Notes under the pieces: model-generated
The model's database searches: none
Told to the model about the DNA's origin: nothing
The model's input: only the letters and a program-made list of their open reading frames with translations
In this document: positions 2,246 through 44,338 of the stretch, piece by piece
Layout: each line of letters begins with the position of its first letter
How positions within the stretch are numbered: position 1 is the first letter of the stretch
Assembly: GCA_951406725.2 (NCBI GenBank)
Contig: OX597827.1
Location: 29,202,001 to 29,266,000 of the forward strand
Length of the DNA stretch: 64,000 bases
Reading direction: 5' to 3'
Origin: Octopus vulgaris
Lineage: Eukaryota
Made by a program: the position numbers and the translations under genes

Positions 2246-2315
<70 letters not shown>

Positions 2316-10568: not shown

Positions 10569-11844
10569 CGAGGGGCGTTCAATAAGTAATGCCCCTGACC
10601 CACTTGCAGTTGTTTGATCTAGCTGAAATTTTGCATGTGCACTTATTTATACCTCTACCTCTATAGATTAAGTGGCGAATTACAGCTCTGAACTAATTGT
10701 GGTTTCTGATTTACAGGTGTTTGAACTGAGTCAAGTGTGAAATGGAGCCTGTTGAGTGTCGAGCAGTGATCTGGTTTTTGTATTTGAAAGGACGCACACC
10801 ACGAGAGACTTTTGATGAAATGAAAGTAACTTATGGCGATGATGCCCCATCATATGACCTTGTAAAACGCTGGCATTGTGAATTCAAACATAGTCGGAAC
10901 TCTGAGGAAACAGCTCCCAGATCTGGTCGCCCCATTCTGCCGTTGATGAGACGTCTGTCCGTCAAGTTGAGGCTGCCATTTTGGAAGGTCAACGCATAAC
11001 TATTCGCCAAATAGCCCATAAGGTCAAGATTAGTATCGGGTCTGTGGAAACTATCATTCATGACCATTTGCATATGCAAAAGGTGTCTGCCTGATGGATT
11101 TCCAGGTTGCTCACACCTTTCCAGAAGCAAGAACGCGTTGAGTGCTCGAGGATGAATTTGGAGATGTGCCAAGAAGATGAGTCAAACTTTTTCAAAAGAC
11201 TGATCACACAGGATAAAACCTGGGTCCATCACTATGATCCAGAGACCAAAGCCCAGTCAATGCAGTGAAAGCACCGTGACTCACCTCCTCCAAAGAAGGC
11301 AAGGGTGCAGCCCTCCGCTGACAAGGTTATGCTCACAGTCTTCTGGGACCAGGACGGAGTAGTGATGACAGATTTCCTGGCAAAGGGTACCACAATTACA
11401 GGAGCCTATTATGCTTCACTTTTGAGGAAATTAAGAGTAGCTATCAAAATCAAGAGGCGGGGCAAGATCAGCAAAGGCATCCTCCTCCTGCAGGACAACG
11501 CTCCGGTCCACAACTCGCGTGTCGCCATATCAGAAGCACAGGCGTGCAGCTATAAACTCCTCCCCTTGCACCCTCTGATTTTCACCTCTTCCCAGCCATG
11601 AAGTTGATTTTGAAAGGAAAGCGTTTCCCAGATGATGCAGCCTTGATTTCTGAAGTCACGTCGTGGTTGGAGGACCAAGCTGGGTTCTTCTACAAAAACG
11701 GTCTCCAGAGCTGTATCAAACGATGGGAGAAATGCATAACTCTGGGTAGTTCCTATGTAGGAAAAGACTAATAACTGTGCCAAGTGTCGTTGCTCTACTG
11801 CTATGGGAAGTGGGTCAGGGGCATTACTTATTGAACGCCCCTCG
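10569..11844 (+). mobile_element. Full-length mariner transposon (irritans/Himar-like), 1276 bp
   Basis: Perfect 37-bp TIRs CGAGGGGCGTTCAATAAGTAATGCCCCTGACCCACTT with TA target duplications at 10567-68 and 11845-46. Confidence 0.95.
10742..11771 (+). pseudogene. Mariner DD34D transposase pseudogene
   Basis: MEPVECRAVI HTH; TQDKTWVHHYDPETK; KVMLTVFWD; LLQDNAPVH. It has internal stops and frameshifts, and the YSPDL part of the YSPDLAP motif is deleted. Confidence 0.9.
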
Positions 11845-12766
11845 TAGGTTCCCCAGTGTAAGATTCGACAAATGCTCCAAATCTGTAATGGTGATGTTAT
11901 TTGTTCTATATTTATATACGATCAAGCTGACCATTGTTGAAAAGCGCTCCGGCCATGACATTTTCGCATAATTCTTGTTCAGATACAATGTTCTTAGGAT
12001 TACGTAACCAGATGAGTGGAAAGCACTAGTTGACTACAAAGTAAATTATACCTATTTAAATTCATTTCAGTTCATTCCTCGTTGCCCAGATCCTAACTAT
12101 ATTAAAGAAACTGTCGCATGTAATAGGAAGAGAAATTCTTTGCAATGCCGAGCAGATATTTGGCCGTATATGTTTAAAGAGAAATACCATTATGCCATTT
12201 CCCGAAAATCAGAGAAAATATAAATATGTTGTAAGACTATTTATGATATGCTGAACAGGAGAAAGTCTGCAGAGAAGAAGCCCTGATCATGCGTGTCCTT
12301 CAGCCCTTGACTTTTTAGACTCTAGGGGTGGGGGCTGGACCGCTTCAAGCCATGACTTCTGTCTGTTGCTACATTCTGTACTACTGCCTACTACCTACTG
12401 TCTACCTTGCACATCTCCCGTGTGATTTAAATTCCCCTGAGTTAAGGTGCCAAGGGTGACTTAACCAAACGATTTGGAAGCACCATTAGGGTAAATTATG
12501 GCTACTGAAATTCATTTCATTCCTCATTGCCCAGGTCCAGCTGCTTCTTCTATTTCCTTAAGAGTTCTAGGACGCTTTCCCCCAGAAAATGAGAACCTGT
12601 TTCATGTGATTGAAGGAAGATTTGCCCAGAAAACCGCTCGTTCTCATCTTTATGACGAAAATTTCTTTTAGAAACGACTCCCTCTCAAACTGGCGGTTAG
12701 ACTAAAACACCTCATACAATTGTTCGGTTTTATTAACTAGAAGAACAAAACCTGAAATTCTGTGGG

Positions 12767-16357: not shown

Positions 16358-17036
16358 AAGATCGATAGATAGAAATGTGTAAGTATATTGAAGTATATAG
16401 ATATATGCATGTGTGCGTGTGTGTTCGTGTATGTCTGTTGAGACTAAATCACTATGAAACTGCGATGTATGCATGAATCTGTTAACTTTGAAAGAGAAAA
16501 CTACGAAGAGGAAAGATATTTGTTCACTTTTAACGGGGCAAAAGTAGCGCACACAGAAACAGGATATGAAGAGATGCTAAAAACAACGGGGGCAAGCTAC
16601 AAAAAACTCGTCTTCATTCCACGTATCATATAGAAACGAGCAGTGAAGTGGTACAGTGCCTGAAGTTTCATACATACATACATTATTGATTTAAGTATGT
16701 TTCTCCATTCTCTAATTTTGTAGTATTAATTTACGGTAATATTATTACCTTTACCCATATAATACATTAGATGAACTGATTGTTTGACAATTTTTAACAT
16801 CTATGTATTAATCTTGTTGGGTACCTATCTGACAGTATATTGGATATATATTATCCCATGGTGGGTTGAATTTTCAACCCCTATCTCATTTTATAACCTA
16901 AATTTATCTTTTGAGGAACCTGAATTGCTCATACTGGTGTAATAGAAGCATCCATTTATTGATTTAAATATTAATAGTGCATGTGAATACACCCTAGTGT
17001 AGTATATTTGTTCCTTTGATCATTACTGCTAGAAGA

Positions 17037-19880
17037 ATGGAGAAAATACTGATCAATTCATCAATGAAGGATGTACCTATCCCTACCAAAGACCATTACA
17101 CTAAAGAACTAATTTATAGAATTAATGAATTCATCCACAGGATCAGATGGAGGATTTTCCACCATGAGAACTATAATAAAAAAATAAACCAACAACACAC
17201 TGGGGAAACGATCCGTAATGGAATTGGAAGTACCTATGAAGAAATATTAAAACTAACAGGCACTACATTTAAATCTAGGAAGTCTCCTCCACCAAATATA
17301 CACCTAGACAATTTTGAACAAGAACTATGGGAGACTATAAAAAACATAAAATTTAGAAATCATCCTTTAAGATATAACCCGCATCAAAGGGAATTGAAAG
17401 ATTTAATTAGAACTCTCAAAGGTAAGAGCGGCATTCTAACACATTCTGACAAAACCAGCAACATCTATAATATTGACATTCCTGCATATCATGATCTTCT
17501 ACACAAAGAAATAACCAAGAAATACAAAGTAGTACCTTCTAGTACACTTAGAAAACTGAACCTGGAGATCAGAGAAACCATATTTGACTACTACCTAGAA
17601 GAAAAAACGGAACCCTACACCCCATCTAGACCGAGAATTACACTAAAGGATCATAAAGAGAATTTTCTTGGAAACACACAGGTCAGATTAATTTGCCCCA
17701 CTAAATCTGACTTAGGCAGACTAAGCAAACTCATTCTAGACAAATATCTACCCACCATCCGCAATAAAATCAAACTAAACCTTTGGAAGAATACTCAGGG
17801 AGCTTTGGATTGGTTTTCTGCCATTAAGGTCTGTGACAGTAACAACTTTAGCTATAATAGAAATAAATTTATCCAATTGGATATACAGAATTATTACACT
17901 TCCATTAACCCTATTATATTAAATAAGTCCTTAATTTTTGCTAGAAAACACACTAAATTAAGTATGGGGGAGATTAAGGTTATACTAACAGCCAGGAAAA
18001 CTTTAATAGAGTTTGATAACAAACTTTGGGCTAGAAAGGACACACCCAACTTGTTCGATATCACAATGGGATCGCCGGACTCGGCGGAGGTGACTGATCT
18101 AGTTGGGATGTATCTACTAGATAACTTTAGTAGGGAATTCCCTGAACTAAAAGGTGGATTATACAGGGATGACGCCTTATTTTGTGTTAAGAATACATCA
18201 AATAGGAGATTAGATCTTCTGAAAAAAAGAATAAATAAATTTTTTAAAAGTTTCGGCCTATCCATTATCATTGAAAGTGAAAATTATTCTGCTAATTATT
18301 TAGATGTTAATTGTAACATTACTAATGGTTTACATGAACCCTATATTAAACCTAATTCTAACCTAATATATATTAACCGTTCAAGTAATCACCCCCTCAA
18401 ATTAAAAATGCACTAGTGCGTAGCATTAGTCAGAGAATTTCTAGTTTATCCTCTAACGAGGAAATTTTTAACAAGCATTGTGATAGATACAATGCAGCAT
18501 TGCTTAAGGCAGGATACAAAAGTAAGATATGGTTTATACCTAAGGGGAACCCTCCTAATGGAGGTAGAACTATCAGGAACAACACCAATAGATTTAGGAT
18601 AAACAACAATATACATAAGAATAGTAAAAATAGAATATATGATAACACCTATAATAAATGTAGAAGTGATGTTAATCTCGGAAAGGTGAACGGTAGCTCA
18701 AATAGATCTGAGCATACGGGTAATAGTAGTAATATTAATAATAATATACAAGTTAAAACTTATGGTAGACATGGTAATGGTAAAGTATACTTGCGCAATA
18801 ACCATGGGAATATTGATATAGATAGATATAACAATGACAGTGGTAAGAATAGTAATCCTATGGGTTGGTCTAGGAATAGTATTTTTACAAATAACAATAA
18901 TTCTATAGGCAATCCTAATTCTGATAAGGATACATTATGGTTGATTATCCCATATGCAATGCAGATTAAAACAAACATAGTGAGAGCTTTGCATAATGTT
19001 ATATTTAGGCATTTTGGTAAGGATAAGAATAAATTTAGTCCTTTAATTAACAATGGTACTGTTAGAGTGGGATATAGCATTACTCATAATCTAGCCACCA
19101 TTATCTCCTCTTTTAATAACAGGAAACTGGATCACTTCTATAAGGATAGAAAATTGAATTTAGACCATGGAAATTTGCCCCTCTTTTAATAATAATAGGA
19201 ACAGAAACTTTCTTGGAACGAATGTGAACAACCCCCTTACTAATAATGAGTGCACCGTACCTGTCAGAGATAATATAAATGTAATAGATCATACTACTAC
19301 TACCATTACTAGTACTAGTGATAGGAATATAGCCGATAATGTGAAATTAACTCATTCGTTGATTTTGGGTTTGGATGATGATAACAATTGTAACACTTAT
19401 AATGTGAATGGTAGTATAGGGGTGGAGACCAATCTTAGATTTCCTCATTCTGTTAATCTTTGTAATTTCAGAAACAAAAATAAATGTGTATTTGGTAATC
19501 AATGCCTCAGGAAGGAGGTAGTTTACCAATGCACTGTAGATACACAATTGAGTAGTAGGGTGTATATCGGAGCAACTATGAATAGCATAAAACAAAGATT
19601 GAATTATCACAGATATACTTTTAGAAATAAAAATAGAATGTACTCTACATGGCTTAGTGCATATATTTGGGAACTTAAAAGTAAGAACTTGGACTTTAGA
19701 TTAAACTGGAAAATACTAACTTCAGCACCTGTGTATAATGGAAAAAATAAAAAATGCTCTCTATGTATTAATGAAATTTTTTTCATTATTAAAGCGGGTC
19801 GGCAAATTATTAACAACATTAATGAAAAAAACTTCTTTTGCATTCATAGGCTACCGTTCACCTTTTCTAGATTCAAATAG
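17037..19880 (+). pseudogene. PLE polyprotein (RT + Asn-rich linker + GIY-YIG endonuclease), broken by two frameshifts (~18395, ~19185)
   Basis: RT motifs SMKDVPIP, SDKT, TLKDHK, LDIQNYY, FDITMGSPDSAE, GLYRDD and YINRSSNHP. Endonuclease VVYQC...VYIGAT...KQRLNYH with CSLC...CIH. Confidence 0.93.
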
Positions 19881-21984: not shown

Positions 21985-22092
21985 CTCTGAAGAGGCCGTG
22001 GGGCATCCTTGTTAATGCCTCATTTATACCTGCCTTTATGGCTTATAGGTTAAATGAGGTATGACTGCCCTCACTGCCGAAACAGCTGTCAG
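21985..22092 (+). ncRNA. Type I hammerhead ribozyme in PLE pLTR
   Basis: CTGAAGA(21987-93) GGC...GCC GAAAC AGCT GTC(22088-90). Stem II is ~85 nt with nested hairpins. Confidence 0.78.
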
Positions 22093-22449
22093 TTTTGATT
22101 AATTGCATATTATATTTTTTACTTATATCTCTTTATCTTTTTACTATTAATGTATATCTCTTTTTGTATAATGCCTCTACTCATATGTAATGGTGTATTA
22201 AAGTATTGATTGGGTATCATCGGATAGTTGATGTTTTATTGATTTAAGTATGTTTCTCCATTCTCTAATTTTGTAGTATTAATTTACGGTAATATTATTA
22301 CCTTTACCCATATAATACATTAGATGAACTGATTGTTTGACAATTTTTAACATCTATGTATTAATCTTGTTGGGTACCTATCTGGCAGTATATTGGATAT
22401 ATATTATCCCATGGTGGGTTGAATTTTCAACCCCTATCTCATTTTATAA

Positions 22450-22526
<77 letters not shown>

Positions 22527-22928
22527 ATTTATATCTATGTATAGATAATAAGAGTGAAAAATTGAATATTAATTTGATCACTATCAATTTAAGACCAGTA
22601 GCCTAGCATAAAGAAAAATCCGAAGATTGAGGAATATTATACAATATGTATATAAGAGGGATGACCACTAAGTGGACATCCATTATGCTAAATGTAGACC
22701 CTATATGGTCTGACCACTAAGAAAAGATTGTTCTCAAGAAAATTCAGCAAATGCCAGATCCTAAGCGAGCAAGACAAATGAAAAGATACAAAATATAAAA
22801 TATAAAGAGAACAATCTTGTCTTAGTGGTCAGACCATATGGGGTCTACATCTAGCATAATGGATGTCCACTTGGTGCTCATATATATGTATATATAATAT
22901 ATATATATATATGTATATATAATACATA

Positions 22929-26058: not shown

Positions 26059-26114
<56 letters not shown>

Positions 26115-26116
<2 letters not shown>

Positions 26117-26640
26117 CGGTAGCAAAAAATTCTAGAAAAAATTTCTGCTACCAGCGGTCCAGCGAGAAAGAAAAGATAGTCAAAGACTATATAATATACA
26201 TTCAAAAATATAAGGAATGGCCATAATAGGACATTCAACTCACTAGAAAGAGCAGCCAAACTCGAACCGCTAATAGAATTTTTTGCTACCCTTATATTTA
26301 TTAATTAATGATTTTTTTGGCTAATTTTGAAATTAAATCAGCAGTTTATATTTACTGCTGAGAAGACCGTGCGATTGCGGTAGATTTTGAAAATTTATAG
26401 CATATAGACTGTGGACTTCCTTACCATCGCCTCGTGGATATATACTCGTCCTTGGCTACTCTGCTGACGAGGCACGCCAGTTGTAAGTTTGCCGAAACTA
26501 TGCATAGTCCAGAGATGAAAAGGGTAAACGTTTTTCTTTTTCTTTCATTTTCAGAATTATAGCTATTAGCGGTTTGAGTTTGGCTGCTCTTTCTAGTGAG
26601 TCGAATGTCCTATTATGGCCAATTCCTTATATTCTTGAAT
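26115..26640 (+). mobile_element. Non-coding hammerhead-bearing element with ~77-bp inverted repeats
   Basis: 26201-26276 is the reverse complement of 26563-26640. HHR at 26459-26514. Flanked by (AT)n. Confidence 0.8.
26459..26514 (+). ncRNA. Type I hammerhead ribozyme
   Basis: CTCTG-CTGACGA-GGCA...TGCC-GAAAC-TATGCATA-GTC^-CAGAG. Stem III is the palindrome ACTATGCATAGT. Confidence 0.93.
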
Positions 26641-26755
26641 ATATATATATATATATACAATTAAGGGCTCCTAAATTAAGATGCCGAGTGCTGGGAACAC
26701 AAAAAGGGGATGAATTTATCGAGAGTGAAAATCAAAAACGTTTACCGATAACTTT

Positions 26756-26839
26756 AACAACTCGAACCGCACGGTTTCTACTTCTTTCTAGCAAAACACA
26801 GAATATGTTTGCTAAGGCTAGCTTCGTCAGCGAGTCGCC
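26756..26839 (-). ncRNA. Type I hammerhead (456-bp unit; also at 27212-27295 minus)
   Basis: Reverse complement of the motif at 28388-28471. Confidence 0.78.
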
Positions 26840-27931
26840 TAGATTGAATCGAGGTCTGCAGCGATGTGGGACCATGTGTTGATCTCGACTACTAGCAGAT
26901 CTTAACTTTTCAAATCTCTGCGCAGACGCAAAACTTACACGTCAGTATAGGGCATGCCGGGAAGAATTTTACGAATAAATCCATCATGTAATATGCGAAT
27001 ATAAACAAGAAGGGTAGTAATATTATTTACCACCAGGTGCCCAGCACAAAAGACGAATTAGTCATAAGACAAAAATATTATTCATATAGAAAAATATTAT
27101 TCATGTAGTTATACAATTAAGGGCTCCTAAATTAAGATGCCGAGTGCTGGGAACACAAAAAGGGGATGAATTTATCGAGAGTGAAAATCAAAAACGTTTA
27201 CCGATAACTTTAACAACTCGAACCACACGGTTTCTGCTTCTTTCTAGCAAAACACAGAATATGTTTGCTAAGGCTAGCTTCGTCAGCGAGTCGCCTAGAT
27301 TGAATCGAGGTCTGCAGCGATGTGGGACCATGTGTTGATCTCGACTACTAGCAGATCTTAACTTTTCAAATCTCTGCGCAGACGCAAAACTTACACGGCA
27401 GTATAGGGCATGCCGGGAAGAATTTTACGAATAAATCCATCATGTAATATGCGAATATAAACAAGAAGGGTAGTAATATTATTTACCACCAGGTGCCCAG
27501 CACAAAAGACGAATTAGTCATAAGACAAAAATATTATTCATATAGAAAAATATTATTCATGTAGTTATACAATTAAGGGCTCCTAAATTAAGATGCCGAG
27601 TGCTGGGAACACAAAAAGGGGATGAATTTATCGAGAGTGAAAATCAAAAACGTTTACCGATAACTTTAACAACTCGAAAGGCACGGTTTCTGTTTCTTTC
27701 TAGCAAAACACAGAATATGTTTTGTGCTGGGCACCTGGTGGTAAATAATATTACTACCCTTCTTGTTTATATTCGCATATTACATGATGGATTTATTCGT
27801 AAAATTCTTCCCGGCATGCCCTATACTGCCGTGTAAGTTTTGCGTCTGCGCAGAGATTTGAAAAGTTAAGATCTGCTAGTAGTCGAGATCAACACATGGT
27901 CCCACGTCGCTGCAGACCTCGATTCAATCTA

Positions 27932-28015
27932 GGCGACTCGCTGACGAAGCTAGCCTTAGCAAACATATTCTGTGTTTTGCTAGAAAGAAGCAGAAACCGT
28001 GCAGTTCGAGTTGTT
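27932..28015 (+). ncRNA. Type I hammerhead (456-bp unit)
   Basis: GGCGACTCG-CTGACGA-A GCT...AGC A-GAAAC-CGTGCA-GTT^-CGAGTTGTT; 9-bp stem I. Confidence 0.75.
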
Positions 28016-28387
28016 ATAGTTATCGGTAAACGTTTTTGATTTTCACTCTCGATAAATTCATCCCCTTTTTGTGTTCCCAGCACTCGGCATCTTAATTTAG
28101 GAGCCCTTAATTGTATAACTACATGAATAATATTTTTCTATATGAATAATATTTTTGTCTTATGACTAATTCGTCTTTTGTGCTGGGCACCTGGTGGTAA
28201 ATAATATTACTACCCTTCTTGTTTATATTCGCATATTACATGATGGATTTATTCGTAAAATTCTTCCCGGCATGCCCTATACTGACGTGTAAGTTTTGCG
28301 TCTGCGCAGAGATTTGAAAAGTTAAGATCTGCTAGTAGTCGAGATCAACACATGGTCCCACATCGCTGCAGACCTCGATTCAATCTA

Positions 28388-28471
28388 GGCGACTCGCTGA
28401 CGAAGCTAGCCTTAGCAAACATATTCTGTGTTTTGCTAGAAAGAAGCAGAAACCGTGCGGTTCGAGTTGTT
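28388..28471 (+). ncRNA. Type I hammerhead (456-bp unit)
   Basis: GGCGACTCG-CTGACGA-...-GAAAC-CGTGCG-GTT^-CGAGTTGTT. Stem III is near-palindromic (AACCG TG CGGTT). Confidence 0.8.
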
Positions 28472-28676
28472 AAAGTTATCGGTAAACGTTTTTGATTTTC
28501 ACTCTCGATAAATTCATCCCCTTTTTGTGTTCCCAGCACTCGGCATCTCAATTTAGGAGCCCTTAATTGTATAACTACATGAATAATATTTTTCTATATG
28601 AATAATATTTTTGTCTTATGACTAATTCGTCTTTTGTGCTGGGCACCTGGTGGTAAATAATATTACTACCCTTCTT

Positions 28677-28729
<53 letters not shown>

Positions 28730-28801
28730 CATATATTCACATATATTCACATATACCTAGACAGATAATACATACATACATACATAGTCAGACATGCAGG
28801 C

Positions 28802-28887
<86 letters not shown>

Positions 28888-29097
28888 GCAGAAAAATACA
28901 TAGATACATACATACATACCTGTATACAAATATATGGGTGTATGTGTGTGTGTATACAGATATGTTTCTCATCGCCACACACCTCTTCCTTTCAGTCAAG
29001 CTCTCTCTCTTTTTCTCTCTCACTCGCATGGTCTCTATCTATATGAAGTGTGATTGCGGTACGTATTAGCTACATAATTATGCATTGTCTTGGCGAT

Positions 29098-29160
29098 CCC
29101 ACTGACGAAGTACGAATGACAAATTGATTCAGTTCTTCGTTACAGAAACTGGAGTTTGGG
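29098..29160 (+). ncRNA. Type I hammerhead ribozyme
   Basis: CCCA-CTGACGA-A GTACGAA...TTCGTTAC A-GAAAC-TGGA-GTT^-TGGG. Confidence 0.78.
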
Positions 29161-30151
29161 GTTAAGTATAATTTTTTTTTTTCGTTTTCTTTGGAATTAT
29201 TTCTTTTCGTGGTTTCCATTTGATTGCTCTTTCTAGCATGTAAGGCGTCCTGTCAAGGGTCACCTCTCTGTGTATAAATATTTATGAGGGTGATCCTCTT
29301 CAGTCATGACTGACCATGGGATTGCACCTAGAAAGTTCCCTTCCCAGGCACACAAGTTCGGGCAAGGTTGTTTATGGAAAGCCAGCAGTCACCCATACAT
29401 ACCAACCTCCCTCTCCACACCACTGATGTTATCCAAGGAAAAGGCAAATGTGCCGATATAGCTTGGCACCAGTGACGTCGCAACTCATTTCGACAGATGA
29501 GTGAACTGAAAGAGCTGAGTATCTTGTTCAAGAACACAACACTCAGCCCGGTCCGAGAATTGAACTCACAACCTCACGATCATTATTTCGACGCTCTAAC
29601 CACTGAGCCACGTGCCTTCACATCTTATAAATACTTATACCTTCTTATATATGTTAGTTTTTATGAATTTGTGTTGTAAGATTCCTTATGTGAAGTCGTG
29701 TGTTGGAACAGATATTGTATTTCGGAATAGTCTCTCTTTTTTGACAAATAAGCAGACGCATTCTAACTCATGTCATAGGCAGAGCAAGAGCACACACGAA
29801 CACGGAAAGTGTCACTGAAGAGGTCACAGATGTGCGATGAAAGACTTCCGGACAATGGACATAGAAAAAGAACAGTAATAAACGAGTGACGGACGAAAAA
29901 TGTGCGCGTGTTTATTTGGCCAAAAACAATATTACCGAAATACGACAATATATATATATGTGTGTCTGTGTGTGTGTTTGTAACATATATGCATACATAA
30001 GGGTATGCGGTTGAGAGCGCGTGTGTGTACATATATACATAAATAGAGAGAGAGGGAGAGAGAGAGAAAGTGAGACATGGAGAAGCAGAAACTGGATACA
30101 TATATATATACATAACACAATGGAGTTGTAAGCTACCGCACGAGTGGAATT

Positions 30152-30862
30152 ATATATGAAAGAAGGTTTGAAAATGCAATTTTAAAAGATGTTTATTTAC
30201 TTTATCGGTTTCACTTTTTTAGAAAAATCTTGTCAAATGTAACATGTAAAAGCTTGGTTGTGTTAGGTACTGGTTGTCATGTTATCTTAACATGGTGAAT
30301 CAGGTCAGTTAAAGCTAACCTACTACTAAAATGTAAACTTTTTTAAACTTATAATATTCTGTGTATATATATACAGATACAATACCAATATTTCACTGAA
30401 CTTTTTAATAATTTCTTCCGGAAACTATCTTTAACATTTTCTTGAGAATGTATATATATATTGTAATCTTTTGTGCCCAATATTTTAATGAACTTGTTAA
30501 ACTTTTTTATATTTTCCCAAGATTTTCCCTTGTAAACTCATCTTAACATGTTCTTATTATCAAGGACTGTATATGTATATTGAAATATTTTGTGACAACC
30601 AGTACCTGGCACAACCAAGGTTGTGTGCCCAATATTTTGATGAACTTGTTAAACTTTTTTATATTTTCCCAAGATTTTCCCTTGTAAACTGTTCTTAACA
30701 TGTTCTTGTTATCAAAGAATGTATATATATATTGTAGTATTTTGTGACAACCAGTACCTAACACAACCAAGCTTTTACATGTTACTTTTGACAATCTTTC
30801 TCTAAAAAAGAGAAACCGGTAAAGTAAATAAACATCTTTTAAAATTGCATTTTCAAACCTTC

Positions 30863-30870
<8 letters not shown>
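30152..30870. repeat. AT-rich element with ~125-bp inverted ends and an internal direct duplication
   Basis: 30152-30278 is the reverse complement of ~30744-30870. 30472-30610 recurs at 30625-30765. Bounded by AT-repeat. Confidence 0.7.
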
Positions 30871-30931
<61 letters not shown>

Positions 30932-30937
<6 letters not shown>

Positions 30938-31475
30938 AAGAGGCTTCCAAATAGGAAATCGTTGTTTTAGAAGGAGCAGTAGAAATCTCAAGACCACAAA
31001 AAAGGATAAATTCACGAAAGGAATGAAAATTAAAAACGTTTACCATCTCAACTATTTTCCAGACTGCGGTTTCTAACTATTTCCAGCAAAAATATATTTA
31101 CTGAAAGCCAGTTTTCTTCAGTGGGATAGCCTTTAAAATTCAGACATACAGACTGCTAGATCCACATGTAGAACTAACGGTTTGTAAACCCTAACTTTTC
31201 AAACCACTGCGCAGACACAGATTATACTCGGCGACAGAGAGGATGCCGGTAAAAATTTCGAACGAATTTATCAAGCAATATTTAAACATAATAAAATAGG
31301 GTAATAATAAATTATTATTACCAGTGGCCTAGCACAAAAAACGAATTAGTCATTAGACTATATATTATTCATATAGAAATACAATAAGAGGCTTCCAAAT
31401 AGGAAAGCGTTGTACTAGAAAGAGCAGTAGAAATCTCAAGACCACAAAAAAATTTATTATTACCCTATTTTATTA
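30932..31475 (-). mobile_element. 448-bp monomer plus partial repeat, retrozyme-like, related to the 456-bp family
   Basis: Direct repeat 30932/31380. Shares blocks (TGCGCAGAC; AGCACAAAA.ACGAATTAGTCAT.AGAC) with the 456-bp unit. Has a short inverted tail at 31451-31475 and (AT)n flanks. Confidence 0.8.
31051..31130 (-). ncRNA. Type I hammerhead ribozyme
   Basis: Minus strand: GCTAT C CCA-CTGAAGA-A AACT...AGTT A-GAAAC-CGCA-GTC^-TGG AAA ATAGT. Confidence 0.75.
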
Positions 31476-31499
31476 TATATATATATATATATATATACA

Positions 31500-32475
31500 G
31501 TGTACACATAAGAGGTAACCATCATAGGACTACCTACACGCTAGAGAGGACGGTTAAATTCGGAACCACTATTACAGACAGAAATCGCAGGAAATAAAAA
31601 ATAAAACATTTACCATCTAACTCCTGAACCAATGGTTTCAGACACTTTTTAACAAACAAAATAATTTGCTAGGCGAAGCCTTCTTCAGCAAGTACAGCTT
31701 AGACTAAATATATATACACAAGGCAATTCAGTATATGCCCCGTGCTTATACATTCTAATTTTTCAAATCTACCGCGCAAGCGCAGCTCGCTGTAAGCAGT
31801 AAATAACTACGCCGGCTTTTTCATTTCGAAAGTTATCTAAAAAATTATCAATAATTAATGTGATCAAAGGGTAATCGGAAATATTAGAAATTTCCATTAT
31901 CAGTGTCCCAGCGTGTAAAGTTTTAGTCAATAGACTATATATTATTAATATAAATATAGTGTACATTTAAACACATAAGAGGTAGCCATCATAGGACTAC
32001 CTACACGCTGGAGAAGACAGTTAAATTCCGAACCACTATCAGAGATAGAAATCGAAGGGAATGAAAGATGAAAAATAAAAACATTTACCATCTAACTCCT
32101 GGGTCAATAGTTTCGGACATTTTTAGCAAATAAAATAATTTGAAAAGCGGAGCCTTCTTCATCAGGAACACTTTAGACTAAATATGCATACAAGAGGCAA
32201 TTCAGCTAAAAAAAAAAGTCTGAAACCATTGGTCCAGAAGTTAGATGGTGAATGTTTTTATTTTTCATTTTTTATTCCCCTCGATTTCTATCTCTAATAG
32301 TGGTTCCGAATTTAACTGTCTTCTCTAGCATGTAGGTAGTCCTATGATGGCGACCTCTTATGTGTTTAAATGTACACTGTATTTATATGAATAATATATA
32401 GTCTATTGACTAAAACTTTACACGCTGGGACACTGGTATGGAAATTTCTAATATGTCCGATTACTGCTTGATAAT
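31500..32475 (-). mobile_element. ~467-bp monomer, ~1.5 diverged tandem units plus an inverted segment (32210-32475), retrozyme-like
   Basis: Direct repeat 31504/31971. 32210-32475 is an inverted copy of ~31870-32125. HHR at 31623-31692 and a decayed copy at ~32098-32168. (AT)n flanks. Confidence 0.8.
31623..31692 (-). ncRNA. Type I hammerhead ribozyme
   Basis: Minus strand: CTTG-CTGAAGA-AGGC...GTCT-GAAAC-CATTG-GTT^-CAGG. Confidence 0.78.
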
Positions 32476-32499
32476 ATTAATTATATATATATAAAAACA

Positions 32500-33457: not shown

Positions 33458-36400
33458 GTCATCCTTTTTGTCTCGGGAGACAATGGAGTTGCGCATAAAG
33501 CAGTCTAGTCCGGCTTTTACATTTCATGTCCTGATATATTTCCTGCTGTGGCTGTGTAGTCCTATCCTGGACAAACACTCCCTCTGGCAGGTACCGCAAA
33601 TGTAGCGAATACTGTTCCTGGCTGGTTGTAATGCCATAGTTTCTTGTTGACGTCTTTTCTTGTCTTTCCATTTCTCCTCTCTCTCTCTCTCTGTCACTCC
33701 TTTGTATTCCCTCTCTTACGGTACATCGCCAGTCTCCACGGTTGCCGGCAACTGCCTCCCAACTGCTAATATTGATGTTGCAGGCCTTCATGTCCCTTTT
33801 GCAAACATCCTTGTAACGTAAGAGCGGTCTACCCACAGACCTAGTACCCCTAGCAAGCTCTCCGTAGAGTATGTCCTTGGGGATTCTGCCATCTTTCATA
33901 CGGCTAACATGCCCAAGCCATCTCATACGTCTTTGTGTGAGGAGTGCAAACATGCTTGGCATTCCTGCTTGCCTGAGGACATCTTTGTTGGGGATATGGT
34001 TCTGCCATTTGATGCGGAGGATTTTCCGGAGGCAGCGCAGGTGAAAGATGTTTAGGCGACGCTCTTGGCGTGTGTATAGCGTCCAAGTCTCACTTCCATG
34101 CAGTAGAGTGCTAAGTACACATGCCTGGTAGATCTTCATTTTCGTGGTCTTGGTCAGCTTATTGTTGTCCCAAGCCCGTTTGGAGAGTTGGGCCATCGCA
34201 GCAGCTGCCTTGCCAATGCGTATATTGAGCTCAGCGTCGAGGGATAGGTTGTAGGTGACGGTAGAGCCCAGATAGGTAAACTTCTCCACCTCTTGTAATC
34301 TGTGGTCTCCAATATGTATGTTTGGGATGTCCGATGTAGCCTGACCCATGATGTTGGTCTTCTTAAGGCTGATAGCTAAGCCAAAGTCGTTACATGCTTG
34401 CTCAAAACAGTTAATGAGCCTTTGGGGGGATTCTTCTGTGTGTGATACAAGAGCGGCATCATCAGCAAATAGCATCTCCTTGATCAGGACGTTTCTGATT
34501 TTGGTCTTGGCACGCAGGCGCGAGAGATTGAACAGTTTCCCGTCACTTCTACTGTGCAGAAACACTCCATCATCTGATGTCTGAAAGGCATGTGAGTGTA
34601 AGAGCGAGAAGAAGATGCCAAACAATGTAGGAGCGAGGACACAACCTTGCTTTACCCCGTTTTTTATTTGGAAGGCGGCTGATGTTGAACCGTTGTGCTG
34701 TATGGTGCCTTGCATGTCGTCATGGAAAGACTTGATGATCCTCAGCAGCTTTGGTGGACATACGATTTTTTGGAGCAGGTTGAACAGGCCTGTTCTACTT
34801 ACCGAGTCAAAGGCCTTTGTTAGATCAATGAAGGCCATATATAATGGCATTCTCTGCTCTCTGGACTTCTCCTGAAGTTGGCGTATGGAGAATATCATAT
34901 CGATAGTTGATCTGCTTCTTCTAAAGCCACACTGCGATTTCGGATAGATTCGAGAAGCAAGTTGTTGTAGCCTGGCCAGGATAACGCGGGCAAAGGTCTT
35001 TCCAACAGTGCTTAGAAGAGATATTCCACGGTAATTGTTACAATCACCACGGTCACCTTTGTTTTTGTAAAGCGTAATGATGTTAGCATCCCGCATATCT
35101 TGAGGGACTGTACCCTCTTCCCAGCACTGACACAGAAGCTCATGAAGGTGCCGAAGTAGGATGGTGTTTTTGCCGGCTTTGATGATCTCTGAGGGGATGC
35201 CGTCTTTTCCCGGAGCCTTGTTTCTTGCTAGGGAGTCAACAGCCTTGATGAGCTCTGCTATAGATGGCGGACTGTCAAGTTCGCACATGACTGGCAAGAT
35301 CTTGACACTCTCGACTGCAGCCTCAGTCACTGTAGTCTCCCGTGAGTAGAGATCCTGGTAGTGCTCCACCCATCTATCCATTTGCTTGCTTTGATCCCTG
35401 ATGATATTTCCAGTAGTTGATTTCAGAGGGGCTGACTTGGTTGCGGATGGACTGAGGGCCTTCTTCAAACCGGCATACATCTCACGGGTGTCGCCACTGT
35501 CAGCAGCTGACTGGATACTCTGACAGATTTCCTGCCAATACCTATTTGCATAGCGTCTGGCTGTCAGTTGGGTTTTATTTCGTGCCTTTCTGAGTTCTTC
35601 GAGTGACTTTGTAGAAGAGTCACTCTTATATTGCATCAGAGCTACACGCTTTGCTTCGATAACTGGCTCCAGCTCTGAGAGCCCAGCATTGAACCAATCT
35701 GGGTTTTGCCTTTCTCTCATGCCGAAAGTATCTATTGATGTCGTATACAAAGCTTCCCTGATATAGTTCCACCTACTTTCAGCAGAGGAGGTTTGGCAGC
35801 CACTGAGGGCAACCTTGATAGAAGCAGCAAAACATTTTCGCAGTGTAGGGTCCGAGGTTCTGGCACTGTTAATGCGTGGTCGGCCCACTTTCTTGGAGCA
35901 ATGGACTTTTTTAGGTAGAATCCTCACCCTACTTCTAATTAGTGAGTGGTCTGTGTCACAATCCGCGCTGTGGTAACTGCGGGTCAATAGAGTAGAATTC
36001 AGGAAGGATCTCCGTGTAATGATGAGATCCAGCTGATACCAGTGGTGAGATCTTGGATGTCTCCAAGATGTCTTGTGGGATGGCTTGTTGGTAAAGAATG
36101 TGTTTGTGATGCACAGGTTGTGGTATGTGCAGAATTCGAGTAGTCTCTGACCATTGTCGTTCATGTTGCCAATACCAAAGTGTCCTACACAAATGGGCCA
36201 CAAATCGTGGTCAGATCCCACGCGAGCGTTAAAATCCCCTAGAAGGTAGATATTTTCAGTCGTTGGTATATTTTCTATGACACAGTTGAGATCTTTGTAG
36301 AACTGGTCCTTGGTCTCTTCTGAGCTGTAGAGAGTGGGAGCATAGATGCTGAGTAGATGTACTGAGCCAGAAGAAGTCGAGAGGCGCAGTGAGAGGCTAC

Positions 36401-37339
36401 GCACAGTGCCTCATGATGGTGGTACTATTGAGGAGAGTAGTGAGTTTCTCACTGCAAAGCCAACGCCATGTTGACGAGGTTCTTCTGGATCTCTTCCCTG
36501 CCAAAAGAAGGTGAAATCCTGCTCTTTGAGTTTGCCGTTTGGGGGAAGTCTTGTCTCCTGTAGCCCAGCAATGTCTATGTTGAGCCTCTTTAGTTCACGG
36601 TCAATGATGGCCGTTTTCCTTGTGTCTTCAACCCTGAGTAGATCATCAGATATTCCAGGGCACACGGTCCTGACATTCCAGCCTGCCAGCCGCAGGCCTG
36701 GTGTTTTCTTGACTTTTAGTTGTTTGCCTGGTGCAGAGGTTGCAGGCCGCTTTTCAAGTCATACTCTTAGCTCCAAGCACCCAATGAAGCAGGCGGCCTG
36801 TGGCGGGTCAGCACCTTATTAACTGGGGGCTGCCCAGCTTGAGGTGGGCAGTAGCTAACCAATGGGACACGGAGGTCCCTCCCACCGTCAGAGGTAACCC
36901 GTAGCGCCCATATCTTACGCCAATCTGAATGGACTTATCACTCGTGACTGTTACCTCCCGTGTTGTTTCTGCAGCTATTTACAGCAGCACTGAAGTGTCC
37001 TCTCCAGTTTTGCGCAGGCCTGGGCTAGAGATAAGAAAGTCCTGGGTAGCCCAATCGTCAGGTTTTTTCTCTCGACCTTGCTGATGTAATCCAAAGGAGT
37101 ACAGTGCATTACGTTTGGCACCAGCTTGGTTGCAGGAGCTGCTGAAAGAGTGTCGAGTCGAACACTAGACCACCTTCGGTGCTCCACTCCGGATTTCTTT
37201 GAAGGTTGTCTCCTTTCCGTAACCCTGGATAGGGGCCCATACCGGGTACTGTCAGCCGGAGCCAGCTGAGCCCGGAACTCGTATCAGGCAGGGTCGTCAC
37301 TCTCTGAAGTAGTGAAGAAGTTCGCTACCCACTACCTTT
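33454..37339 (-). mobile_element. Full-length RTE-clade (BovB-like) LINE
   Basis: ~600-bp 5' UTR, single APE-RT ORF, very short 3' UTR ending in (TA)n. Both ends sit in AT-repeat. Confidence 0.93.
33459..36750 (-). pseudogene. RTE ORF: AP endonuclease + reverse transcriptase (one in-frame TGA at 36411-36413; probable frameshift in (AG)n near 33690)
   Basis: GWNVRT, GLQETR, LGDFNARVG, DCDTDH, NYRGISLLS, QCGFR, FIDLTKAFD, GVKQGCVLAP, LFADD, FTYLGS, RWLGHVSRM. Start coordinate is approximate. Confidence 0.93.
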
Positions 37340-38816: not shown

Positions 38817-41800
38817 TTACAGATTTACGCTTAAAATAGAGTTGTCTTTCATACTGACCATTTTTGCCACTTTTACCCACTTTTTATTAAAACATTCGTT
38901 CGACAAAGCCTTCCTCTCTATTCTCATCCTCCTTTTCAAGTGGTACTTGAAAAAGTTGACGAGAGACTGACCAGAGAGGAAGGTGTTTATTTGCAGTCCT
39001 TTCAAATGCGTCCACCACACACATTCTTTCGCCATAGCCATCAGCGTAACGAAAACTGTTTTCCCTTCCCGTTTAAAGGAAGATGGTGGAACAATATTCA
39101 CGATAGACTCGGCCGATAAGCGGGGCCCGTCCTACACGCGACAACAGCTGTTCGACGAAGGTCCACAGCTCTGAAATATCTGGACACTGCACGGGTGCGT
39201 GCAGAACGGTTTCGTCGCTCTGACCGCATCTCGGGCAGGTCGGTCCGGTGATGGTTTTCGAACCGTGCCTGTAGCTCTTCTCTCGAACAGGTAGTGCGTC
39301 TCGATAGCATTGCCAAGCCAGGGATTTCTGGAAGTTATCCATAGGCCCCGGCCCGAACGTCGTCCTGACAGGCGGGTTAGGAATTTCTCGTCGACGCCCA
39401 GGTTTGCCCCGAGTGTGTCGTCGGACCTCCCCTCCACTAGTCCTCTATAGAACGCTTTAGTCGTTTGTAAGTTGCACAAGTTTGACCCCGGTCGGCAGAG
39501 CTGCTGTAGAGCTTGGCGACACTCGGTGCCAGTCGCCCAGTTTCGGTCTCTTCTTGATCTACGTTTTCAGTTCGGTCAGTGAGACGAGCTGCGGGAAGGC
39601 GCGCCTCATAAACGGCGCCCACACCTGTTCACCGTCATCGATGAAGTTCCAGAGATGTCGCAGTCTCAGCGCATGCCTGCGCATCATCAACCACTGCATG
39701 CCCAGTCCTCCATTCAACGGATGTTGACAGCAAATGAACTTCCTCACCATCGGAACGCCACCCTTCCACAGGAAGCGGAAGAGTATGCGCTCCAGTTTGG
39801 TGATGGTGGCGTCGGGACAAGGCACGACGGTCAGGCGGTAATCGATCACGGATGCGATGTACGCGTTCGCCACCTCCGCCCGACCTTTTAGAGACATCTT
39901 TCTCTCGGCCCATGTTTGGCTGAGAGCGACCACTCTACTCGTGATCTCGTCCCAGTTCTTATCCATTTGGAGGTCCGGACTGAACCAGACCCCGAGCAAT
40001 TTAACCGGTCCGTCCGTCCACCGTCCCACTACTGAGCCGCAGTCGGACGGCATGGGCTTGCTTTTCCAGGTGCCGAGTAGCAAACCCACTGACTTTTCCG
40101 GGTTAATCTTCGCTCCCGTCACCGTTTCGTATTTTCTTAGTGTCTCGCCTATCATCTGGATGTGTTTGTCGCTCGACACTATGACGGTGACATCATCCGC
40201 ATATGCCGAAACGCTCGTCCCACAACCCAGTTCCCGTGGGATGTCCCTCAGCGTCGCCAGCTTCCGCAGTAGCGGCTCGAGAGTCAATACATACAGAAGC
40301 GCCGACAAGGGACACCCTGACGGACCGAACGCGTGATGTCAAGCGGTTTCGACAGGTGACTGTTCACCCGAATCACCGATCGGATGCCGCTATACAAGGC
40401 AGCGATCCAACCGCGGAAGACGGGACTGAAGCCAGCCGCCCTGAGGACGGCCGCCAAGTACCGATGGTCGACCCTATCGAAGGCTTTAGACTGATCCAAA
40501 TTGATCAGCGCCCCACCCATGCCAGGATCCTTAACTACCCTGTCCACAATGTAGCGCATCAGATGGAGGTTGTCATGCATGGTTCTGCCCGGCACGGCGC
40601 ATGTTTGCGCCCTGTCGACCAGTTTACCAATGACATGCGCCAACCTCTCAGCTATTACTTTGGCCAAAATTTTCAAATCTGCGTTGAGCAGAGTGATGGG
40701 CCTGAAATTATCTATAAAATTCCCCTTGTTTGGGTCTTTCTTCAGCAACGTCACTGCACCTCGGCTCACGAAACCGGGGATTCTCCCGTTTTGTTGCCAG
40801 TTGCAGTAGACTGATGCCAAGAGGTCGCCAAATAAGTCTGGCATTTGACAATACAGCTCGTAGGGCAAACCATCCAATCCAGGCGACTTATCCCTCGCGC
40901 AGCCCGCCATCGCATCCCGCACGTCAGCGGCTGTGATGGGACTTTCACAACTCTCCGCTTCTCTTGCCGAGAGCCGCGGCAGGTCGGTCAGGTAGGCACT
41001 GAAATCCATCCCGCGTTCCGACCCACCACTCGCACCAAACAGTCGAGCAAAGTGCTGTTGAAAGGCCTCACACATCCTTTCGGGTTCGAGTAAACTGCAT
41101 CCCAGTTGATCTATTATAGACTGAATGGTGGCTCTGTTGCCACGCTGCGCCTCCGCTACCCGGTCCTCTCGCGCAGCTTCGATCCCTTCGTTCCTTAAGG
41201 CACACATTTTAGCTCTGACGACGCAACCCTCGTGCTTGGCGTTGAGGTGTTGGTCGAGGGCCATCCTCGCAGCCAGCACGCTGGTTGCGCTGCCAGTGGT
41301 AAGTGCCTCTTCTAGTTTCTCAACCAGGTCACCTTCTACACTATTTCGATCTATCGCTAATTCCTTGCTAAACCTAATTGATTCCGATTTTATTGCCATT
41401 TTCAGGGCGAACCACCAGCGGTTGTTAACGACGGCTCCCGTCAGCGCCCCTCTTAATTAACTCGCTAATCCGGTTCCTGTAAACCTGTCGCGCTAAGAGC
41501 GACGTGTCCAGTTTCCAGTAGCCGGGACCCTGTCTATGTGTCTTATCTAAGTCGAGCGTACACGTCACAAATTTGTGATCTGTGTAGCTGACTATTTTAA
41601 ATTGTGGACATCCTACACTATCCCTATCCGCTGTCCTGCATTGAATTCTATCTAGATAAGATCTCGACGATCCGACGCGGTTTGTCCAAGTCCGCGTTGG
41701 CACGTTCGAATGGTCTAGTCGGAACCTGTCAGACAAATGAAAACGTCTGAGTAGGTCTTTGAGGCACTTACACCCTCTTCTATTCCTATTCATTCCCACA

Positions 41801-42255
41801 TAATCTAGATGCGTGTCCAAGGTAGCGTTCCAATCCCCTACTAACAGTAAAGGTCTAGACGTACCCAGGAAAACCTCTAGACGTCTGAAGAAATCCGCCC
41901 GACCCGTTAAGGACGGTGCATAAACTGCCATCAAACGGAATGCACACCCATTTCTGCCATCCACGTCCAAGACAACCAGCCTACCCTCCGGGTCTAGGAA
42001 TATTGTTCTTACTTTTACATTTAGACTCTTTCGAAAAAGCACCGCGGTACCTCCACCACCCATGTTCGGCAGACAGGGAGAAAAATAAATGTCGAATTGA
42101 TCGCCAAACATGGACGCGAAGGCCCGCGGCTTGCTGAGTCTGGTTTCACTGGTAGCTACTATATCCACGTTCAGTGACTTGATGTCGTTTAGAAGGTAAC
42201 CTTCTTTCCAAGCCGACGCCAAGCCACGCGCATTCACACAACCTAATTTAAGCAT
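38817..42255 (-). pseudogene. Tx1-like ORF2 (APE endonuclease + RT + Cys-rich domain), multiple frameshifts
   Basis: CVNARGL, SETRL, VGDWNA, SYLDRI, YTDHK, PGYWKL; KSPGLDGLPYE, FRPITLLNADLKI, LDQSKAFDRVDH, SVRQG, AYADD; CPRC...ETVLH...C. Confidence 0.92.
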
Positions 42256-42321
42256 AATTGACGTTTAAGTAATTTGTGTTTCACACACTACATTGGAAGA
42301 GACAAGAGGCAAAAGGGAAGG

Positions 42322-44338
42322 TCACTTACTCATTTCGAAAGTTTGAGTTTTTTCTTCTTCTTTTGTAGTGTCTTTGAGGAGCTGTTTGTATAGTTTTTTT
42401 GAGAGGTATCGTTGAAACCCGCCTACCGCATTTGGAAATATTGTTTTCAGTGTATGGTGTTGTGTTTGTGTTATGTGTACAATTCTTATGTGTTTCGGTG
42501 GTGTGGTGCGCGGATGATTATTTGTCTTAAAGTCATCTTCACAGATGTTCGTGTTGGATGCAATGTAATCCATTAATTTTTTATTGTCTGTGTCTATTGC
42601 AGTTAGTTGTGTGTGGTGGTTTTGCGGGTTCATTGATTTTTTAAATTGTCTAGGGGGATGCTGTCCAGAGTTAAATATCTCCCTGCTTTACTTACTTGTT
42701 TGGTGGGCTTTTTTGATCTTTTCCTTTTACCCCCTGTGACTATTTGCCATTCCGTCGAACTTTCGTCGTTGGACGACGAGTCCGACGAATCAGAAAGGGG
42801 TAAAGGCAAAGCATTTGCGTTAATATGTACGCTTGTAGAAATTGTCGATGTTTTGTGTGGTGTTTGTGTTGTTGGGGTGTTAGGGGTAGAATTTGTCTTC
42901 TCGTCACTGTTTTCTGTTTTTTTAGTTGTCGTCCTCGGTGTTGGTGTTGGTCTATCTTTTGTTGGTTCAGTATGTTGAATTGGTTGCGACGTCAACGGTG
43001 ATTGTGTTGGTGCTGCTTCTTTTCTTGGTGATGTTGTTAGGGTTTGTTGGCTGGTTTGTTATTTTTCTTTTGGCATTGTTCCATAATTGAGTGTGTTGTT
43101 GTTGGTGTTGGTGTTGGCAACAAGGGTTTTTTATTTGTTTTCTGATTTGTTCTTTCTTGTTTTTTCTGTGCCAGAGCGCACTTGGCAATTAAATGTTCTG
43201 GGCTGCCACAGTTGTAGCATCTAGGCTTTTTGCCTTCTGCTACAACATATAGGTTTTGCCCATTTTCTAAATGGATCCTATCAGGTAGGTTCTCGATAGA
43301 GGACCCCTCAATCTGGATGGTCACTACTATTGTTTTACCACCCCAATTGTCGTTTTTGCACACGGCGGTTTCTAATATGTTTATCGTTTTCAAATGGTAA
43401 CAGATCGCTCCTGTTATCCATTTGTTAGGTATCTCGGGGGGTACATTTTTAATGCTAATTCTACTCACTCTCTGGGCTTTTGTAATATGGGATCATGATG
43501 ATTTCATCATTTTGCATCCGTAGAGTGAGCTTTTGCCATTTCCTGGTTAGGGAAGCGGACCACCACTGTATTAAACTGGGGGCCCCAGTTTATATATTCT
43601 TTTTTTTCATTATGTTTTTTAAACACTTTTCTATGTCCGTTTTTGTAATCTGTTTATTTTGTTTTTTGTTTTTTTTTTATAATTTTATATATATTTGTCT
43701 TATTTTCTATTTGTTCCTTTATGTGTTGAGGTGTATGCAGCCCTAAATCCTGCTCGGGTTGTAAAGAGTCCTCTCGTTTCTATTAACTCTTCATTCGTAA
43801 ATATTACTATTTCTTTTTTCTGACGCAGGGCGTCAGCGAAATTTATCGTTATATTCTGGCAGTTGTTGTCGTTGTGTGTTTTTGTTGTTGTATCCGAAAT
43901 ATTCTTGTACGTGGCTCTTACAGGTGCTGTTGATTCTATTATATTAATAACTTCACTATTAGATGGTAAAATATTTATTTCATTTTTGTTGTTCTTGTTT
44001 TTGTTAATAGTATTCGCGTGAGTTTCATTTTTATCATTTATGTTGGTCGTGGTGGTGGTGGTGGTGGTGGTGGTGGTGGTGGAGGTGGTGGTGATTGCAG
44101 TAGTAGTCTCGTTGTTGTTGTTGTTAGTGGTGGTGGTGGTGGTGACAGGGCTGTTACCGCAAGTGGTTGCAGCGTTCACTACCACGTCACTCAGGTTTGT
44201 CGAATGTGTGTGCGTGCATAAGTTCTTTTTTTCTCCTAGCGTTTCAAGTCTAGGAAAATGCTGGTCCATAAAAGAACGCGACCAGCGTTCCTTTATAACA
44301 TTTATTGACATTAAAAAATGTCGAGAAGAAAAATACAC
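42322..44338 (-). pseudogene. Tx1-like ORF1 (gag-like, CCHC zinc knuckle), fragmented
   Basis: RISIKNVPPEI...KKPRCYNCGSPEHLIAKC with Thr/Asn-rich low-complexity segments and WQIVTGGKRKR. Spread over several frames. Confidence 0.75.

Follow-up and report, generated by a model that had tools for sequence, protein, structure and literature searches.

A multibranch RNA fold behind hammerhead ribozymes in Octopus vulgaris: a candidate initiation signal for the reverse transcriptase of Penelope-like elements

We describe a conserved RNA structure encoded behind hammerhead ribozymes in a 64,000-nucleotide stretch of the Octopus vulgaris genome (GCA_951406725.2, contig OX597827.1, positions 29,202,001 to 29,266,000, forward strand), called the window throughout. 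The window is AT-microsatellite-rich animal DNA from a genome of 2.8 Gb. Several hammerhead-bearing repeat families are nested in its (TA)n tracts, together with three open reading frame (ORF) remnants of Penelope-like elements (PLEs), similar to those listed for octopus by Craig 2021 (PMC8557442). An earlier note on this DNA had reported a hairpin that follows each hammerhead by about 65-100 nt, in families regarded as otherwise unrelated, and had proposed a structured cis-signal for a PLE reverse transcriptase (RT). We found the hairpin at all seven quoted places, with coordinates off by 0-3 nt, and the motif starts 65-95 nt downstream of the hammerhead cut. The hairpin, here P2, is predicted to be a single arm of a multibranch fold of about 200 nt downstream of the hammerhead. 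The helix order is an outer P0, a small hairpin Px, a long-range P1 that encloses P2, an AU-rich P2b and P3, and then a terminal hairpin P4. Copies end at either of two positions, the short end E1 or the long end E2.

Families without an ORF were named by window position as A (26464), B (a 456-bp array), C (31121, minus strand), D (32316), E (29102), I (59121, minus strand) and J (22652, minus strand); the coding families are F (17037), G and H. A type I hammerhead of family A lies on the plus strand at 26459-26515, with a CTGACGA..GAAA..GTC core, visible stems and a predicted cut after 26509. Downstream of it on the same strand is an E1 copy of the fold (26567-26639; 49 bits), with the P0 5′ arm at 26567-26573, the P1 5′ arm (YAG-n6) at 26593-26600, P2 at 26603-26625 and its end at about 26639 beside (TA)n. 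The complete family A fold, P0-Px-P1-P2-P2b-P3-P4, occurs as an E2 copy on the minus strand (26105-26275; model hit of 117 bits). Family B forms 456-bp tandem units in two arms. The inverted arm (26654-27720, minus strand) has two complete folds (27028-27180, 27484-27636) and an E1 end at 26654; the direct arm (27720-28684, plus strand) has hammerheads at 27941 and 28397, folds without Px at 28047-28199 and 28503-28670, and an E2 end at 28684. Family E (29102-29285, plus strand) has a hammerhead, the 5′ arms of P0 and P1, and P2, after which another repeat interrupts it. The family C unit of about 450 bp (30935-31450, minus strand) has a complete fold at 31290-31450, a hammerhead at 31062-31121 and an E1 end at 30935. 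Family D is present as a minus-strand unit (31497-32041; complete fold 31860-32041, hammerhead 31627-31688, E1 end at about 31497) and as an inverted plus-strand copy (32222-32480) with the 3′ half of a hammerhead, a fold at 32295-32441 and an E2 end beside (TA)n. Family I (58940-59474, minus strand) has a complete fold at 59339-59474, a hammerhead at 59079-59121 and an E1-type end at about 58940. The complete family J fold (22550-22722, minus strand) has lost its hammerhead, as had been noted, but other J copies have one about 125 nt upstream.

The units of families A-E, I, J and O are ORF-less tandem repeats of 450-570 nt. By their sequence, the units of A, B, C, D, E and O (about 450-570 bp; 456 bp in the B array) may be classed as retrozymes without long terminal repeats (non-LTR), being tandem and ORF-less with a type I hammerhead in each unit. 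Genome copies were fetched from 30 loci each for A-E and 20 each for I and J, and 73 candidates from an Rfam hammerhead search of the genome were scored; families K-Q come from the flanks of loci fetched for other purposes. Copy numbers are lower bounds. One 19-base pattern from a single sub-lineage has 1372 exact genome matches, compared with 0 for a control. Families are 56-72% identical to one another (median 62%, compared with a median of 57% after shuffling), and the structure is retained while interfamily sequence is near saturation. The families share the whole fold and several sequence boxes, so they are diverged relatives rather than unrelated. Nor does the motif accompany every hammerhead family. 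The coding families G and H have no covariance-model match, and neither does a 352-bp tandem unit at 1391-2249 (plus strand), a separate retrozyme-like family without the fold that has canonical hammerheads at 1686 and 2038.

The P2 hairpin is real and covarying. For its test we used YRG as the anchor, took the best G-started stem in the next 44 nt and compared it with 2000 shuffles per family, the stem borders being picked by best pairing equally in real and shuffled sequence. P2 has 71 contiguous pairs over 14 families, against a null mean of 22.6 and a null maximum of 49 in 2000 rounds. When each 5′ arm is matched with the 3′ arm of its own family, 55 of 56 cells pair; foreign arms give 2.5 of 4, and a value as high as the real one occurs in 0 of 100000 permutations. 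This and the following permutation tests ignore kinship between families, and their counts are not exact probabilities. The hairpin lies 80-106 nt from the hammerhead cleavage site in families A, B, C, D, E and I.

The TTYYAG-n6/7 string in front of P2 is present as the earlier note described it, but it is not a mere flank. YAG-n6/7 is the 5′ strand of P1, a helix of 7-10 bp whose partner strand ends 88-115 nt downstream. The arms differ in sequence between families and still match, e.g., CTAGCACAA/TTGTGCTAG in family C, CCAGCAC/GTGCTGG in family B and CGGCATATT/AATATGCTG in family I. With both arms located via sequence motifs, and family E represented by one copy, the cognate P1 duplex energy is the best among all 5040 family permutations and each of 7 families has 7-9 contiguous pairs. 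The pair count of the variable part of P1 is reached by 20 of the 5040 permutations. On a structure-blind alignment, P1 is paired in 52 of 56 cells of the training families (2/5040 permutations as high).

A covariance model built from 12 copies of 7 families finds seven further families, K-Q, with the same elements, and a hammerhead core lies upstream of the fold in K, L, M and O. A structure-blind hidden Markov model also recovers K, N and O at full length, along with about ten short-ended fragments of more families. In the seven held-out families P1 is paired in 39 of 56 cells of the structure-blind alignment (192/5040 as high; slid controls 11-18), a count in which family Q, its 3′ end unaligned, is scored 0; for held-out P3, 36/5040 permutations are as high. 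A model-fitted alignment of 19 hits shows both-sided change at 23 of 29 pairs and 79.8% of cells paired, compared with 37-43% when slid, the figure for P1 being 96.9%; the alignment is biased in favour of the model and includes three short-ended copies and one probable false hit. On it, G-U pairs in P1 (11) exceed mismatches (4), and the hammerhead-sense RNA strand is therefore favoured. Folding of single sequences gives the P0/P1 multiloop order in 9 of 14 families (A, B without Px, C, D, I, J, K, L and O). P0, P1, P2 and P3 are covarying helices on the hammerhead-sense strand, and the P4 hairpin is predicted in most families. Against Rfam, the fold reaches no gathering score and has repeat-driven microRNA-type hits only; the sole ribozyme match is the hammerhead. 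By eye, a further GC-based hairpin (GCAG/CTGC or CGGCA/TGCCG) is seen 45-60 nt after E2 in several of families A-E and K (e.g., 27820-27835). An outer stem between a donor-like GGTAA and a TTACC before E2 was considered and rejected, as the folds pair TTACC locally as P4. Short-ended fragments with the layout TTTCYAG-n6-hairpin-CYCTT-(TA)n were also seen for at least eight more families (L142:778, L208:2221, L101:57, L013:898, L112:586, L055:1910, L226:1208, L028:662, L187:7337).

The ends of insertions fall at fixed positions of the fold. For family A we anchored on the hammerhead, which avoids the bias of hairpin seeding, and took the first 60 of 124 exact cleavage-site matches, 59 of them usable. 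Microsatellite adjoins 52 of the 59 ends; 31 are E1, at +8 to +21 after P2 (15 of these on a single base), and 21 are E2, at +100 to +125. None of the 52 lies upstream of the hairpin, a region to which hairpin-seeded mapping is blind. The remaining copies comprise one read-through and six interrupted by other sequence. Family C, with 20 of 43 hits fetched, gave 16 microsatellite-adjacent ends, nine at +7 to +26 and seven at +100 to +113. Hairpin-seeded mapping in A, B, C, D, E and I placed 0 of 137 ends between P3 and P4, and TA sites elsewhere in the unit are not used as ends.

E2 lies 9-18 nt past P4 (family medians; family J is left out of the distance table for E2, its landmark missing), and E2 minus E1 is 88-119 nt. 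Owing to an extra hairpin in D, E and F, P2 and E1 are 8-42 nt apart depending on the family; from E1 to P3, in contrast, the median stays at 11-17.5 nt for 8 of 9 families (O is one copy). Thus, E1 is best described as a linker inside the P1 loop, and P2 alone is not the ruler. In family B we noticed a 19-nt duplication in the E1 linker. E1 is in the AU-rich linker of the loop closed by P1, and E2 is just after P4. The earlier note saw several insertions end within a few to about 30 nt of the motif. One class does end near the hairpin, and the tabulation reveals a second that ends about 90-120 nt further on. The stretch from E1 to E2 is an optional extension bounded by two discrete classes of 3′ ends, as is the PLE 'tail', and we regard it as a long version of the Penelope tail, of about 90-120 nt rather than 30-40.

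The earlier note named a Naiad RT for tests of binding and priming. By their motifs, the coding elements beside these families are Hydra-clade PLEs and not Naiads: the endonuclease (EN) is C-terminal and hammerheads are present. The Hydra clade has a C-terminal GIY-YIG domain, DKT, an RWK-like motif, a CxCX5C linker and canonical hammerheads, while Naiad has an N-terminal GIY-YIG and lacks the canonical hammerhead (PMC8557442). The family F ORF (17037-19880, plus strand) is frameshifted in the window, and a 955-aa open copy exists at G000:C2:168270440. One ORF encodes both RT and GIY-YIG, the latter on the C-terminal side (in the open copy, VVYQC..VYIG is close to the C-terminus), and there is no N-terminal EN. 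Its motifs are HSDKTS (DKT), RIRWR (an RWR variant of RWK) and CNCRNKNKC (CxCX5C), with no CCHH, and it shares 40% identity over 512 aa with a metagenomic relative. A Pfam search did not detect the GIY-YIG or RT domains of family F.

The leader of family F, whose unit is about 5.5 kb, holds the same inner fold, with P1 paired in 54 of 54 cells and both-sided changes at 3 of 9 pairs in an alignment fold of 6 copies. The order is the P1 5′ arm, two hairpins, an unpaired linker with the ends, the long arm P3 and, 4 nt ahead of the ATG, the 3′ strand of P1. In the window (16829-17032, plus strand) the P1 5′ arm is at 16829-16837, mutated in this copy, the E1 linker at 16900, and the two hairpins and long P3 arm precede the P1 3′ arm at 17024-17032 and the ATG at 17037. 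The 3′ pseudo-LTR (21987-22450, plus strand) has a long-stem hammerhead at 21987-22090 and an E1 end at 22450 beside (TA)n. The leaders of G and H have different nested stems that close on the start codon, and two end classes. In our inspection of G (L182-L190, L199) and H (L191-L192; window 59570-59840, minus strand) the leader stems close on or just before the ATG and the end classes are about 115 and 155 nt apart. The octopus-type families F, G and H differ from canonical Hydra elements in their remodelled leaders and in ORFs of about 900-1090 aa, compared with about 720 aa, that have asparagine-rich inserts between RT and endonuclease (18400-19500; L181, L183, L184, L192). At 62310-62400 (minus strand) lies part of the leader of a canonical Hydra family of 727 aa (cf. 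L405), (TA)n-joined to the family H remnant.

Canonical Hydra elements have a simpler structure near their ends. A metagenome scan with an RT alignment gave 78 loci, of which 33 non-redundant leaders of at least 150 nt were used. A hairpin of the form GCTC-variable-GAGCACT occurs in two copies in 22 of the 33, in one copy in 7 and not at all in 4; ORF interiors and reverse strands have it in 1/33 each, as one copy. The duplicated hairpin sits between hammerhead and ATG (L247-L324; e.g., L249:194-291, L272:110-185, L312). Its upper stem varies freely and a 2-nt 3′ bulge is frequent. After dropping three contig ends and one tandem read-through, and merging loci with the same insertion, we had 11 distinct ends, 10 of which lie 2-6 nt 5′ of hairpin 1 or hairpin 2 and the remaining one 12 nt. 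The two hairpins are about 52-75 nt apart and ends lie beside either copy, so in these elements the tail is as long as this spacing. The genome of the window also has canonical-type families whose hairpins are related. The GCTC..GAGCACT hairpin is visible by eye in the File S7 consensi of PMC8557442, whose text, in the parts available, does not mention it.

The closest known system is Poseidon of Anolis (PAc; Frangieh 2024, PMC11167929). On AT-rich DNA its purified RT-EN makes a nick, and copying begins at two internal RNA sites, between which the tail lies. One of these sites is in a stem-loop at +111-118 and the hammerhead cut is at +26, i.e., 85-92 nt apart. The RT needs RNA to +172, 3′ of the start, and hammerhead cleavage is not needed (PMC11167929). 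Like the octopus fold, this structure lies about 85-110 nt past the cut of a type I hammerhead; the two also have in common a pair of start or end sites, an optional tail, an AT-rich target, a start in a stem-enclosed loop and the implication of RNA 3′ of the start. Anolis Poseidon belongs to another clade, is one element, and its published text, as far as available, gives no covariation analysis. Its tail is 30-40 nt within the ORF, whereas the octopus families have about 90-120 nt in a non-coding multibranch fold; its loop is AC-rich and theirs AU-rich; function was shown there and is deduced here. The Hydra clade shares with the window elements (TA)n targets and tandem and inverted pseudo-LTRs, and the hammerhead is the sole conserved RNA structure described in the accessible text on that clade (PMC8557442). 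Published retrozymes of the non-LTR kind (Cervera and de la Pena 2020, PMC7229834; Li 2026, 10.64898/2026.07.22.740005) likewise consist of tandem units that lack an ORF, measure a few hundred bp and have a type I hammerhead. PLEs are proposed to mobilise them. In the portions available, these papers name no PLE recognition signal; the fold described here, shared with a coding PLE family, is a candidate.

At roughly 65% probability, we consider the fold, in the pseudo-LTR of Hydra-type PLEs and in ORF-less retrozyme derivatives, to be a cis signal that positions internal RT starts and so yields the Penelope tail. The cis-signal proposed in the earlier note is in line with strong covariation and with ends clustered at fixed fold positions, although the unit is the multibranch fold and not the hairpin. 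In the mechanism we propose, a read-through transcript of a tandem unit would fold, and an RT-endonuclease supplied in trans would bind the fold. The protein would then nick (TA)n DNA, and the nick would prime inside the RNA at E1 or E2, probably with the help of a few TA/UA matches. The simpler duplicated hairpin just 3′ of each start site would likely do the same job in canonical Hydra elements. E1 copies have just the 5′ halves of P1 and P0, and therefore would need a downstream tandem unit for renewed mobilisation.

Several results weigh against this reading. Five of 14 single-copy folds miss the topology partly (E, M, N, Q) or wholly (P), and fold z-scores range from -6.1 to +0.1, three families being near 0. 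On structure-blind alignments neither held-out P0 (1896/5040 permutations as high) nor P2 (824 and 2585/5040) is significant, in part through misalignment; the P2 counts are uninformative because P2 and P3 are put in the wrong place by MAFFT. Family B and amplified variants of C (L398, L403, L404, L022) have lost Px, which is therefore dispensable. Family B is an exception in its E1-P3 distance of 42 nt. Locus L325, without P2, ends at E2, and L386, without the P1 5′ arm, ends at E1, though the losses may have come after insertion. The surroundings of E1 and E2 are rich in TA, and microhomology with the target could sharpen the clustering. Among the coding elements, all seven family F ends are E1, the covariance model scores F at just 14.8 bits (E 0.52), and of seven coding families sampled F alone has the inner fold. 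A coding partner of A-Q, sought as an ORF continuous with the unit, was found by tblastn in none of 150+ loci, and two protein searches and 40 fetched stretches also missed it. A protein acting in trans is inferred for these families because no such continuous element was found, and their assignment to a Hydra-type PLE would rest on the fold shared with F, the hammerhead type and the (TA)n targets. The octopus-type covariance model has no hit in the metagenomic Hydra leaders (best E 0.3), so only their position, rather than demonstrated homology, links the fold to the GCTC hairpin.

The alternative that survives best, improbable as we judge it, is that the fold is selected for a compact circular retrozyme RNA (stability, ligation, a free hammerhead) and that RT starts at any AU-rich single strand left open. 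Metazoan retrozyme circular RNAs are predicted to be highly self-paired (PMC7229834). Families A-E, I, J and O are ORF-less tandem units of retrozyme size, and contigs of presumed RNA runs cover A and B. Yet family F, a coding element with a 5.5-kb unit, retains the inner fold and the end position. Compaction would not keep helix order, linker lengths and the CTAG and CCACTGG boxes at near-saturated divergence, and it leaves the 2-6-nt spacing in the metagenomic Hydra elements unexplained.

Two other explanations have a distinctly smaller chance. TTYYAG could be the 3′ splice site of a short pseudo-LTR intron, with a donor-like G|GTAAAY 55-80 nt upstream and the hairpin in the next exon. Donor- and acceptor-like strings do bound a stretch of 73 nt in A, 55 nt in B and 77 nt in C, and PLEs of D. 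virilis have a spliceosomal intron beside the hammerhead (PMC4209133). Pairing accounts for most of what suggested a splice site. The downstream strand covaries with YRG and with the variable bases that follow; family I has CGG in place of YAG and keeps the pairing via G-U; and J and E have no donor. In 4 of 4 runs on A and B there is no skipping joint and contigs cross the putative intron, a slight point since the RNA status of these contigs is a guess. At similarly long odds, the fold could be a processing element, i.e., a second ribozyme or a nuclease signal that cuts the RNA at E1 and E2, with copying from the 3′ ends so created. The multiway junction, its conserved boxes and the single base shared by nearly half of the family A E1 ends, would suit such cutting, but in most families the ends spread across 10-15 nt, Rfam matches no ribozyme other than the hammerhead, and the Anolis RT starts internally on uncut RNA (PMC11167929). 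Least probable is control of translation or transcription, by a stem closing on the start codon or an internal DNA promoter: the long-range stem in F, G and H does close 4 nt before, or on, the ATG, and an internal promoter of Penelope is reported (PMC2377424; PMC8557442), but ORF-less families maintain the fold by compensatory changes, a DNA promoter (an option the earlier note had raised, without support here) would not covary, and neither version predicts the end positions.

Placing the fold beside the duplicated hairpin permits a broader reading, which we hold tentatively and would not yet rate as probable. PLE RTs may recognise a specialised RNA structure by which the internal start on the template is set, a part played for their sister enzyme by telomerase RNA. 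For the Hydra clade, the structure would be a hairpin present twice, the duplication creating two starts and the tail; in this genome one lineage may have rebuilt it as a domain of five to six helices, which ORF-less retrozymes kept and so hijack the RT. PLE RTs are the sister group of TERT. The likeness to telomerase RNA is conceptual: in either case the enzyme would rely on a folded RNA and begin inside the template; the octopus fold has no Rfam telomerase match and no repeat addition.

The fold bears on how a PLE RT chooses its template and on why the tail is optional; one element has been reconstituted so far (PMC11167929). The two covariation-backed RNA elements come with base-level predictions of start sites that can be tested by the published assay. 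They would also supply a candidate cis signal for the proposed PLE mobilisation of animal retrozymes, and bear on the origin of the telomerase-type partnership of RT and RNA. In the literature searched, which lay outside Repbase, subscription papers and figures (including the RNA fold in Fig. S2C of PMC11167929), we found no description of the fold or of the duplicated hairpin. The structure thus appears to be unnamed there and in Rfam, as the earlier note had supposed, while the general idea was preceded by the AC-rich stem-loop start of Anolis Poseidon (PMC11167929). It is most likely an RT-initiation signal of a known class of element.

Elsewhere in the window, LINE-type remnants (endonuclease and RT) and a mariner-like transposase fragment, judged by their translations, are found at 33459-36758 (minus strand), 39073-43492 (minus strand) and 10831-11921.

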